21,213 nucleotides of DNA from a virus (taxonomy: Duplodnaviria; Heunggongvirae; Uroviricota; Caudoviricetes), in IMG/VR virus record IMGVR_UViG_2534681774_000019, positions 1 through 21,213 of that record; one strand, written 5' to 3'. A program made the position numbers and the translations under genes. Below the pieces are notes generated by a model. The model saw only the letters and a list, made by a program, of their open reading frames with translations. It ran no database searches and was not told where the DNA came from. Of this stretch, positions 3,906 through 5,704 are shown in pieces. Numbering within the stretch: the stretch's first letter is position 1; the number at the start of each line of letters is the position of its first letter.

Positions 3906-4216
3906 TCTTGCTCACTGGCAGCCTCCTTTGCCGGGATTTCTAACTTTTGAGTGGTTGTATCAAATTCAAACAACTTAACCACGTCATCAAACAGGACATA
4001 ATCACCATCAGGATCTTCAGTCATATCTGCGCCACAATCCTGACCGCACGAGTCGCAACCATCCATATCAAGCTCGTATCGCTTCAGGTTTGCGATATTT
4101 GATAAATTCAGCGCCAGTACAGCCAGGTCATAAACCTCTTCGGCAGTGACATCGCTGTTCAGTCCCATTTCATGGCGATATATGATTTTTTCTACTCGTT
4201 GTTTTGTGATCGTCAT
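3902..4216 (-). CDS. hypothetical early-left protein (104 aa, acidic, Cys-rich central segment)
   Basis: ORF track 3902..4240 trimmed to ATG 4216 (MTITKQRVEK...), which has a GGAGTGAAGAG-type RBS. Confidence 0.5.
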
Positions 4217-4487
4217 TTTTCTCTTCACTCCGATATACAAGGATTACTACACCCCCTCTGCTGATTGCGCGAGCTGGATCCCCTGGTTCCATGCCGTCAA
4301 TTCCGAAGGCTTCGGAAAACGCATTCATTGCCTTCTGGCGTTCATCCTGCTTACGGCGTTTATTCCATTTTTTCAGGAACAACAGCGACAGCCACCGTCC
4401 GCTGCAGAACACGATGTAAAAATAACCAAGGAGCGCCAGGCCGACATTCAGGGCCGTTTCTATGGTTAGTTGTGAGTCAGTTGCCAT
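4170..4487 (-). CDS. small membrane protein (one predicted TM helix followed by a basic stretch)
   Basis: ORF track 105 aa. Hydrophobic segment LTIETALNVGLALLGYFYIVF then KKWNKRRKQDERQK. Its 3' end overlaps the next gene start by about 47 nt. Confidence 0.35.
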   Translation of the reverse strand: MATDSQLTIETALNVGLALLGYFYIVFCSGRWLSLLFLKKWNKRRKQDERQKAMNAFSEAFGIDGMEPGDPARAISRGGVVILVYRSEEKNDDHKTTSRKNHISP

Positions 4488-4571
4488 TTCTTACCTGTTT
4501 AAGTAACTGGTTGAACATAACACTTAGGGGATTGCTGTATCCAAACGGCAGATTGTTTACGCAGTACAGAA

Positions 4572-4724
4572 TCATTTTGTTTTTTCTCCAGTTCGTACTA
4601 TTAACCCATTCCACAATAACCGTGATAATTCATTACTGATAGAAGTTGCGCTTCTTCCAAGTGCGAGGGATATATCTTCTCTACTGCAATCTGGATTTTC
4701 CTGGATATACTCGATAACGGTCAT
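4572..4724 (-). CDS. small putative winged-helix DNA-binding protein (about 50 aa)
   Basis: ORF track 4572..4766; internal ATG 4724 (MTVIEYIQENPDCSREDISLALGRSATSISNELSRLL...) has an AAGGGA RBS and avoids overlap with the upstream gene. Confidence 0.3.
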   Translation of the reverse strand: MTVIEYIQENPDCSREDISLALGRSATSISNELSRLLWNGLIVRTGEKTK

Positions 4725-4734
4725 GTGGTCCCTT

Positions 4735-5316
4735 TTACTTAATATCTGTTTCGGATTGCATGCCATGAGTATTCATTTCGTTAATAATTTCATCCAGAAG
4801 GATTTCAAGCCCTTCTCGACCCATATCTGAAAGAATGAAACCTTTATCAGGGGAAGTAGTGAGCATTTTCTGATAAAGAAACAGCGCTCTTCCCATTCCT
4901 TCAGCTTCGCCGTATTTTTGAATTAAATTCCATTCAATATACTGTTGTAAGGCAAATCGAATGGGGCCGGGATATATCGTCATAAACCCATACATCCCGT
5001 TATATACCACGGCGTGTTCAGTTGTTCCGTGTTCATTCAGGATATCAATTGTGCCGTTCTTGTCTTCTTCTTCGTTGATGAATGTCGTCACATACAACCA
5101 TCGCCACTGAGCAACCTTCATCTCAACCGGAAGTTTACCCAGTAATCCTGCTTCGTCGGCTTGCGCCAGACACTGAAGGATACGTAAACCTCGCACATTA
5201 GGAGTATCGAATTCTCCGGCATCCAGACGACGTATGGCGTCGTGATAATCAATCGTCATACTGCCAGTTCGTATACCATGGGCTGTTGCTTCAGCTTGGA
5301 ATTCATCGTATTGCAT
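4735..5316 (-). CDS. hypothetical protein (193 aa)
   Basis: ORF track; ATG 5316 preceded by GAGGAA; 5 nt downstream of the stop of ORF 5322..5510. Confidence 0.55.
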   Translation of the reverse strand: MQYDEFQAEATAHGIRTGSMTIDYHDAIRRLDAGEFDTPNVRGLRILQCLAQADEAGLLGKLPVEMKVAQWRWLYVTTFINEEEDKNGTIDILNEHGTTEHAVVYNGMYGFMTIYPGPIRFALQQYIEWNLIQKYGEAEGMGRALFLYQKMLTTSPDKGFILSDMGREGLEILLDEIINEMNTHGMQSETDIK

Positions 5317-5321
5317 GATAT

Positions 5322-5510
5322 TTATTCCTCATCTTCATCTTCATCTGCTGGTGCAATAACGTCATATCCTGCCTTTTCTGCAATAAACAGGAATGTTGAA
5401 AGAGTTCCTACAAGTTCATCGTCATGAACATGGCGAATGAATATTACTTTCCCGTTTTTGATGGTCAGCAATATTCTGGTTTGTTCGTGTTCTGCTGTTT
5501 TCTGATGCAT
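5322..5510 (-). CDS. small acidic protein with poly-Asp/Glu C-terminal tail (62 aa)
   Basis: ORF track; ATG 5510 preceded by GGGAGATAATA; C-terminus APADEDEDEE. Confidence 0.5.
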   Translation of the reverse strand: MHQKTAEHEQTRILLTIKNGKVIFIRHVHDDELVGTLSTFLFIAEKAGYDVIAPADEDEDEE

Positions 5511-5704
5511 TATTATCTCCCGTATGCTTTACGCAGAAATAAGCAGGCAATATGCATGTAATTTTCACCGTATTGTGCAATAAGGCAGGCGGTCTTGTGT
5601 GATGCCATATTCTTTATAAAAGTCACAATAAAGCCTCCTGTGGATTAAGGTTGTAACAATCCCCGGCGATAAAACCGCAATAAACGTTCAGGGCATATTT
5701 GTTG

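Follow-up and report, generated by a model that had tools for sequence, protein, structure and literature searches.

Through small antirepressors, one prophage can switch on another. To our knowledge, such proteins have so far been shown only for the Salmonella prophages Gifsy and Fels-1 and for the E. coli prophage Qin. Here we analyzed a stretch of 21,213 nucleotides (IMG/VR record IMGVR_UViG_2534681774_000019, hereafter the window), in which the interval 4170-5632 carries a gene, designated D, whose 62-aa product is, as judged by sequence comparison, a homologue of the experimentally characterised small antirepressor FsoA and a more distant relative of Rem. What is new in this interval is the assignment of D to the FsoA/Rem type and the recognition of a neighboring gene, E, as encoding an uncatalogued conserved micro-protein. 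The interval also encodes a membrane protein of the uncharacterised family DUF4752, of which it is an ordinary representative.

The closest described system is that of Fels-1, where fsoA is located in the left operon and is derepressed upon self-cleavage of the CI-like repressor FsoR (Lemire, Figueroa-Bossi and Bossi 2011, PMC3121763). FsoA is dispensable for induction of Fels-1 itself and acts in trans on GtgR, the repressor of Gifsy-2 (PMC3121763). The repressor-antirepressor complexes of the Gifsy phages behave as A2B2 heterotetramers that leave DNA, and C-terminal 3xFLAG tags left FsoA and GftA unimpaired (PMC3121763). The second system is Rem of E. coli K-12, which was found by iterated searches starting from GfoA of Gifsy-1 and FsoA of Fels-1, and which relieves DicA repression of dicBp 165-fold (Ragunathan et al. 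2023, PMC10448788).

A word-indexed search with D alone retrieved close E. coli relatives only, and an exhaustive profile search followed by a second search with a diverse alignment was needed to reach distant homologues. The exhaustive search, carried out against 1.84 billion representative proteins, yielded 39 clusters of D homologues at E<=0.001. Most of these proteins are 54-94 aa long and share the core R(V/I)LLT(I/V)ENGxVxxxRxxxxDExxASxxxFxxLAxxAGYxVxxP. With the diverse alignment, homologues were found in Serratia, Klebsiella, Raoultella, Dickeya, Pectobacterium, Brenneria and others. D is a small single-domain protein in a family of Enterobacterales phage proteins of 60-90 aa, and it also conforms to the family core motif GR(V/I)L..(I/V)ENG.V...R.L.DDE.(V/I)..L.TF.E.A..AG, which can be aligned with FsoA, Rem, GftA and phage homologues.

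When a hidden Markov model (HMM) of the D family was searched against Fels-1, Gifsy-1 and Qin, it detected the Fels-1 open reading frame (ORF) 3494-3730 (E=2.9e-20, 68.7 bits), which corresponds to STM0898.2n, a 78-aa protein annotated as hypothetical. The primers listed in Table S1 of PMC3121763 show that this ORF is fsoA: ATGAACTCACAGCAAATGATGA (MNSQQMM) stands at the end of the PBAD-fsoA primer and the fsoA::3xFLAG primer encodes ...EAGIRFEEISNVG, the C-terminus of the same ORF, so that both of its ends are matched. In a direct BLASTP comparison, D and FsoA were 46% identical over 37 aa (E=1e-9). Alignment of the D-family profile with Rem of E. coli K-12 by hhalign gave a probability of 81% and E=1.2e-5 over a 42-residue core. 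GftA, identified through its primers as 36665-36886 of LT2 Gifsy-1, was marginal against the D profile (E=0.6) and aligned with the same core, and Gifsy-1 STM2616, annotated as similar to antirepressor, was found to have a D-like C-terminal domain (E=1.7e-4). Among PHROGs, D matched phrog_340, for which no function is given, and more weakly the C-terminal parts of two families labeled anti-repressor. An AlphaFold2 (AF2) model of D built from 46 homologues had a mean predicted local distance difference test score (pLDDT) of 83.7, with values above 90 at residues ~11-50; the core (residues ~11-54) is predicted to consist of a beta-hairpin at 13-27 (strands 13-18 and 21-27) and a helix at 37-46, followed by a disordered tail.

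The 21-kb window is a phiP27-like lambdoid prophage of E. coli. The initial annotation, which was made from the letters of the sequence, had placed the interval in the early-left region, and this placement is borne out by the operator repeats upstream of 6702, which match those between cI and cro. Because the repeats are the same, the region 6703-6805 can be identified as pL/oL and the interval as the distal part of the early-left operon. Within it lie five genes, in the order E, D, C193, a small frameshifted winged-helix gene and the DUF4752 gene, all on the minus strand; the 193-aa ORF and the frameshifted gene had gone unmentioned in the initial annotation. The features, beginning on the cI side and following the operon from pL, are as follows.

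7485-7500 and 7508-7525: operator repeats between cI and cro (oR)
6806-7462: cI gene, with HTH_3 and Peptidase_S24 domains, i.e., of the self-cleaving type
6703..6805, minus strand: pL/oL control region between cI and the 6199-6702 gene, governing the left operon
6707-6721, 6737-6751 and 6770-6783: three copies of the operator-like repeat TGATAC(C/T)T..G(T/G)TAC (oL)
6762-6734, minus strand: promoter-like TTGCCA-17-TACCAT, detected by promoter scan and overlapping the oL repeats
6199-6702, minus strand: gene for a DicA-like helix-turn-helix (HTH) protein
5705-6070, minus strand: gene for a 121-aa protein
5664..5677, minus strand: hairpin ahead of E (stem CGGT/GCCG, loop TTTATC, then GGGAT), in a 78-nt untranslated stretch
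5513..5626, minus strand: gene E, 37-aa basic micro-protein, GTG start at 5626 and TAA at 5515-5513
5322..5510, minus strand: gene D, 62 aa, homologue of the small antirepressors FsoA and Rem
4735..5316, minus strand: gene C193, conserved acidic 193-aa protein (phrog_1515)
4477..4724, minus strand: small winged-helix (MarR-like) gene, 84 aa in relatives, here split into ORFs 4572-4724 and 4477-4614
4170..4487, minus strand: gene A, DUF4752 protein, 105 aa
3902-4240, minus strand: gene for a 112-aa protein (phrog_3126), followed by Ead/Ea22

The three ORFs that the initial annotation had singled out are present with the features it described, namely a protein ending in APADEDEDEE (D), a protein with a transmembrane helix (the DUF4752 protein) and a 37-codon ORF in a 194-bp gap, with a GTG at 5626, an AGGAGG sequence and a stop at 5515-5513 (E). 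All three are conserved in related prophages and none is a chance ORF. The accompanying view that none of them could be classified from sequence proved wrong for two of the three, which belong to DUF4752 and to the FsoA/Rem family. The interval makes up the accessory, promoter-distal portion of the pL operon, and its content is otherwise ordinary for lambdoid accessory regions. A prophage of E. coli O111:H2 strain 12A, whose integrase adjoins mlrA/yohO/yehW, is 100% identical to window positions 3786-6800 except for one base, and the induced phage PhiR49_2 of ECOR13 shows 99.6% identity to 3867-6489. Remoter relatives include phiP27, ASU11 and many Stx1a- and Stx2a-converting phages.

The layout around D is of the FsoA type: the operon stands behind operator repeats in common with oR, the cI product has an S24 domain and a scan of the minus strand from pL to the ORFs of the interval revealed no terminator-like site. 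D further resembles FsoA in its core, in its small size (62 aa versus 78 aa), in its position in the left operon of a prophage with a cleavable CI/LexA-type repressor and in having no LexA box nearby; LexA-box control of D was accordingly rejected. In addition, the Fels-1 operon contains an unannotated homologue of E upstream of fsoA (NC_010391 4285-4389). The two proteins differ in that FsoA has an N-terminal extension of ~30 residues, whereas D has an acidic repeat tail. The operons also differ, as two other genes are located between the E homologue and fsoA in Fels-1, which has no C193 homologue. Furthermore, the target of FsoA is known to be GtgR of Gifsy-2, whereas for D there are candidates only. 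Rem of Qin (PF27490) is likewise a small phage protein with the same ~42-residue core; however, its identity to D is 21% over 42 hhalign columns and 16% in the multiple alignment, and rem is located in the nin/late-regulator region rather than in a pL operon. GfoA, GfhA and GftA (of Gifsy-1, -3 and -2, respectively) are small proteins that release dimeric, non-cleavable, CI-N-terminal-like repressors from DNA, and the published C-terminus of GfoA, RRLGYRVTPPSDI, resembles the AGYxVxxP motif of the D family. Unlike D, their genes adjoin dinI under a LexA box, near tail-fibre genes.

Together, these data lead us to favor, with moderate confidence, an explanation in which the interval comprises distal genes of the pL operon and D is an antirepressor of the FsoA/GfoA/GftA/Rem family that acts on a short HTH repressor. 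Of the five genes, only D lends itself to a mechanistic proposal. Once the S24-type CI protein has cleaved itself in response to SOS induction, pL would be free, as the shared operators suggest, and D would then be translated from the pL transcript, probably in a manner coupled to E, since the stop codon of E is 2 nt before the ATG of D and the Shine-Dalgarno sequence of D is inside E. By analogy with the Salmonella proteins, we infer that D may bind a DicA/GtgR/RacR-class HTH repressor, which would be short and non-cleavable, and remove it from its operator, possibly as a dimer in an A2B2 complex such as that of GfoA and GfoR. The most likely target, as suggested by the action of FsoA on Gifsy-2 GtgR and of Rem on Qin DicA, would be the repressor of a co-resident prophage. 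A possible alternative candidate is the DicA-like product of 6199-6702 in the same operon, an HTH-only, non-cleavable protein with 34.5% identity to DicA (NCBIfam DicA model, E=4.5e-11), which carries the PHROG label CII-like regulator.

Several observations weigh against this assignment. The similarity of D to Rem and GftA is weak, precomputed matches to PF27490 (Rem) exist on some D relatives, where they are recorded as faint, and none is recorded for close relatives. A fold search found no solved structure that resembles the D model, and sequence and profile searches of PDB gave chance or designed-repeat matches. Moreover, three other bioinformatically predicted antirepressors of K-12 were inactive on dicBp (PMC10448788), which means that family resemblance is no guarantee of activity on a given repressor. 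The type of D does not co-vary with the DicA-like gene either: phiP27 has a near-identical 6199-6702 protein and a D that is only ~45% identical, and thus no specific pairing of the two is indicated. Finally, the distant homologues of D in Serratia, Raoultella and Dickeya occur in varied contexts, including a P4-like element and the nin region; no conserved neighborhood was found for them, and guilt by association was uninformative.

The product of 4170..4487 matched Pfam PF15944 (DUF4752) with E=7.2e-37 (125.8 bits against a cutoff of 27; profile positions 2-84 of 84) and also phrog_667. As the initial annotation had described, it has one membrane helix followed by a basic stretch, and both hydropathy and the AF2 model agree on this: there is a single hydrophobic segment (Kyte-Doolittle 19-residue maximum of 1.67 at residues 12-30), then KKWNKRRKQDERQK. 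The regions of the protein are an N-terminal membrane helix (~11-36), a basic helix (KKWNKRRKQ) and a C-terminal beta-hairpin (73-84), and the invariant residues in the alignment cluster in the membrane helix (T8, L13, N14, L17-L19, G21, Y24, W32) and the basic helix. In the AF2 model, a long helix (4-61) and the small beta-hairpin (73-84) were predicted with a mean pLDDT of 71, which was judged uninformative for a fold search. Anchoring in the inner membrane is probable. In the protein collection, homologues came from E. coli and Shigella, and tblastn detected the family in 135 phage records (Escherichia, Salmonella P22-like, Klebsiella, Erwinia and the P1-like D6). Two locations were seen for the gene: behind the small winged-helix gene in the early-left operon, and behind a DUF4406 gene in the replication/nin region. 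In most cases it overlaps the beginning of an Ead/Ea22 gene. In the lineage of the window, the protein differs from the rest of the family in having a C-terminal extension of 12-14 residues, the coding sequence of which overlaps ORF 3902-4240 by 71 nt (47 nt with the RefSeq start of that gene).

It is tentatively possible that the DUF4752 protein, and perhaps E too, acts on the host envelope or division or excludes superinfecting phages, as do small membrane proteins of other prophages. Consistent with such a role, the single membrane helix is followed by a basic segment, for which the positive-inside rule would predict a cytoplasmic location; the gene is an accessory one that shifts between the ea region and the nin region, usually beside Ead/Ea22; and it is under purifying selection (the ratio of nonsynonymous to synonymous substitutions, dN/dS, is 0.14 relative to the Stx1 phage copy). 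However, searches of PADLOC, NCBIfam and PDB gave nothing informative and no homology to a characterised exclusion, abortive-infection or division-inhibitor family, no paper mentions DUF4752, and a function is assigned in none of the 135 matching phage records. Similarly, an HMM of the E family had no similarity to Kil, CIII or orf28 of the lambda early-left region (best E=7).

As for D, it may be a generic protein-interaction or dimerisation module whose partner is not a lysogeny repressor, perhaps Rha/Roi-type regulators of the right operon or C193. In the homologue P0113, the D-like core is the C-terminal domain behind a Phage_pRha domain (the Rha N-domain) that closely resembles the N-domain in the window's own Rha protein (8914-9468), tandem duplications of the core occur in P0103, P0104 and P0119, and D is accompanied by C193 in phiP27-like phages, EKP1 and CharmingMan. 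On the other hand, the Rha proteins of the window lack a D-like domain, which leaves no obvious homotypic partner, and Fels-1 has FsoA but no C193 homologue. This role is also unlikely in view of the family members studied by experiment (FsoA and Rem, with GftA and GfoA as more distant cases), each of which acts on a repressor. It was also observed that the second Rha-family protein of the window (plus strand, 8614-9468) has an unrelated C-terminal domain where P0113 has the D-like domain, as if Rha regulators exchanged their effector domains as modules.

The initial annotation had proposed that a 37-codon ORF was missed in the gap upstream of D, and the comparison with relatives supports it: by its pattern of substitutions, E is a genuine conserved gene for a basic micro-protein under strong purifying selection. 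The ORF lies within the 194-bp gap 5511-5704, with AGGAGG 7 nt upstream of its GTG. Its product is basic (isoelectric point, pI, 9.5) and probably helical. E is intact and free of indels in seven relatives with 79-100% nucleotide identity, all of which start with ATG, GTG being found in the window only. Variable columns in the alignment number 12, 4 and 23 at codon positions 1, 2 and 3, respectively, and pairwise Nei-Gojobori dN/dS values are 0.03-0.17. Relative to phiP27 and ASU11, synonymous divergence is near or at saturation (dS of 1.4-2.7 or not computable). By tblastn, E was found in 32 phage records, and carriers of homologues include Fels-1, the Escherichia phages SaltyDalty, Fraca, Fostie and CharmingMan, Cronobacter phage ENT39118 and 'Elizabethkingia' phage EKP1. 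Among 11 sequences, 11 of the 37 positions are invariant (consensus MTFIKDKxAYkTACLxxxxGxxYxHIxxLFLRKAYGR), the length is held at 35-38 codons, and the ORF is intact in 11 diverged phages with hosts recorded in four genera. In all cases the gene belongs to the early-left operon and follows the repressor gene at a distance of a few genes.

E had no match in PHROGs or Pfam (none at E<=1 in the latter), PADLOC and NCBIfam yielded nothing for E or for D, and PDB sequence and profile searches with E gave chance or designed-repeat matches only. E is annotated in the records of PhiR49_2 and the Stx1 phages, and not in any RefSeq E. coli record examined or in the Fels-1 reference record. The Fels-1 homologue, MTFIKDQAAFKTAQLFHTSGYNIIAELFLRKAYGR, is encoded on the minus strand at NC_010391 4285-4389, in the gap between STM0898.4n and STM0898.5n. 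EKP1 (OM284015) contains an E homologue with 61% identity as well as homologues of D and C193, and its immunity region is typical of enterobacterial lambdoid phages; the assignment of this phage to an Elizabethkingia host looks doubtful. In EKP1 and CharmingMan, the E, D and C193 homologues occur in that order in one operon, although not adjacent to each other.

It could be argued that E is not a functional protein but a translated leader, whose role would be to carry ribosomes over an untranslated spacer to the next gene. In every phage, the last codons of E contain the Shine-Dalgarno sequence of the next gene (GGGAG before D in the window) and its stop codon is 2-5 nt before the next ATG, while the downstream gene itself differs between phages. 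A conserved hairpin is also present just upstream of E. In eight phages, including Fels-1, EKP1 and SaltyDalty, its four stem pairs are 100% paired, three of them with compensatory changes. Nevertheless, a pure coupling role is quite unlikely because the amino-acid sequence is conserved: the invariance of nearly a third of the positions and the low dN/dS, with dS near or at saturation in the most distant pairs, far exceed what coupling needs, and the length of E stays within 35-38 codons. The hairpin was considered separately as a nut-like site, a candidate rejected as unsupported: the window has neither a further copy nor a boxA-like sequence, an N gene is lacking, and the folding energy was not unusual. 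A scan of 3700-7900 against Rfam gave no match, the hairpin included.

The initial annotation had also described D as strongly acidic. This holds for the whole protein (net charge -8.1, pI 4.74) and not for residues 1-54, where the net charge is just -1.1, and thus the acidity is almost entirely in the last 8 residues, which are part of the APADEDEDEE terminus and are not conserved. The run DEDEDEE is encoded by a GATGAA repeat, and its length varies among close E. coli relatives (DEDEE, DEDEDEE, DEDEDEDEE and DEEEDEDEDEE); at the DNA level, the window has one extra GATGAA unit compared with the Stx phages. The orthologues in phiP27 and ASU11 end with PPAKEQTL and have no acidic run, and the tail is also missing in most of the family. 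The tail is a slippage-generated, dispensable appendage, and the tolerance of FsoA and GftA for the very acidic 3xFLAG tags fits with its being harmless. The analogy with DNA-mimic anti-restriction proteins such as T7 Ocr and ArdA, by which an acidic surface of D would inhibit restriction enzymes of the host soon after induction or infection, is therefore extremely improbable: the net charge and the early-operon position would suit it, but the charge is the sole likeness, about seven of the eight net negative charges are in a tail that is unstructured in the AF2 model and differs in length among near-identical relatives, the near-neutral conserved core is homologous to antirepressors, there is no relation in sequence or fold, and no anti-restriction or defence/anti-defence model (ArdA, KlcA and Ocr included) was matched in Pfam, NCBIfam or PADLOC.

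The assignment of D to the antirepressors has consequences for polylysogenic strains. The segment with D and E was detected in 266 of 5426 complete E. coli genomes (about 5%), and an FsoA-type gene is thus recognised in a lineage of this extent, which includes Stx1a- and Stx2a-converting phages. Every database copy of D that we saw is labeled hypothetical, and the homology makes prophage cross-induction testable in pathogenic polylysogens. A stronger proposal, which we offer with considerable doubt, is that D is an active trans-acting antirepressor in phiP27-like prophages, including those of the Stx1 and Stx2 type, and that E with its covarying hairpin is a new early-left element for regulation or host takeover. 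If so, induction of a D-carrying prophage would derepress repressors of the DicA/RacR class in co-resident lambdoid or cryptic prophages, leading to coupled prophage induction and hence to toxin or dicBF expression in polylysogenic E. coli, and E with its hairpin would be common to lambdoid phages with hosts recorded as Escherichia, Salmonella, Cronobacter and, doubtfully, Elizabethkingia. E also illustrates how a micro-protein under strong purifying selection can be systematically missed by annotation.

Of the remaining genes, C193 had no relatives in Pfam, NCBIfam, PADLOC or PDB. It is always directly downstream of D in phiP27-like phages, and its homologues in EKP1 and CharmingMan (40-44% identity) are in the same operon as those of E and D. 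In the winged-helix gene, a 1-nt deletion, A6 (4580-4585) instead of A7, breaks the frame. A7 and an intact frame are present in six related E. coli loci (L001, L002, L023-L026), and a programmed -1 frameshift was rejected because these relatives simply have the longer run; the A6 run reflects either a true frameshift or an error in sequencing the homopolymer. In Stx1_14040, the gene is intact and its 84-aa product is BCI49044; annotations of Stx1 phages call it MarR. It matched MarR_2 with E=3e-5 (24.5 bits, below the cutoff of 27) and phrog_1687 with E=2.4e-12, and by these scores the product is winged-helix-like and not a demonstrable member of MarR. RefSeq and PhiR49_2 leave the gene unannotated even when it is intact.

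Upstream of E, the 6199-6702 protein has relatives that differ at the C-terminus, and several of these relatives (215-242 aa) carry a second HTH domain. The gene at 5705-6070 (minus strand) is given as 121 aa in the phiP27 annotation (L08) and as 68 aa in RefSeq, and Stx phages have a 66-aa version. The C-terminal half of the 121-aa ORF weakly matches the N-terminal part of phrog_4836, a CII-like regulator (E=9e-4), which suggests that it may be a stand-alone copy of the N-domain of such regulators. At the other end of the operon, an IS21-family element (IstA with an rve domain, 2677-3699; IstB, 1919-2680) is located within the Ead/Ea22 gene. The prophage of strain 12A, which is otherwise identical, lacks this insertion. 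In the window, the remnants of Ead/Ea22 that flank the element are an N-terminal part at 3766-3915 (profile positions 1-42) and a C-terminal part at 1269-1883 (profile positions 38-138).

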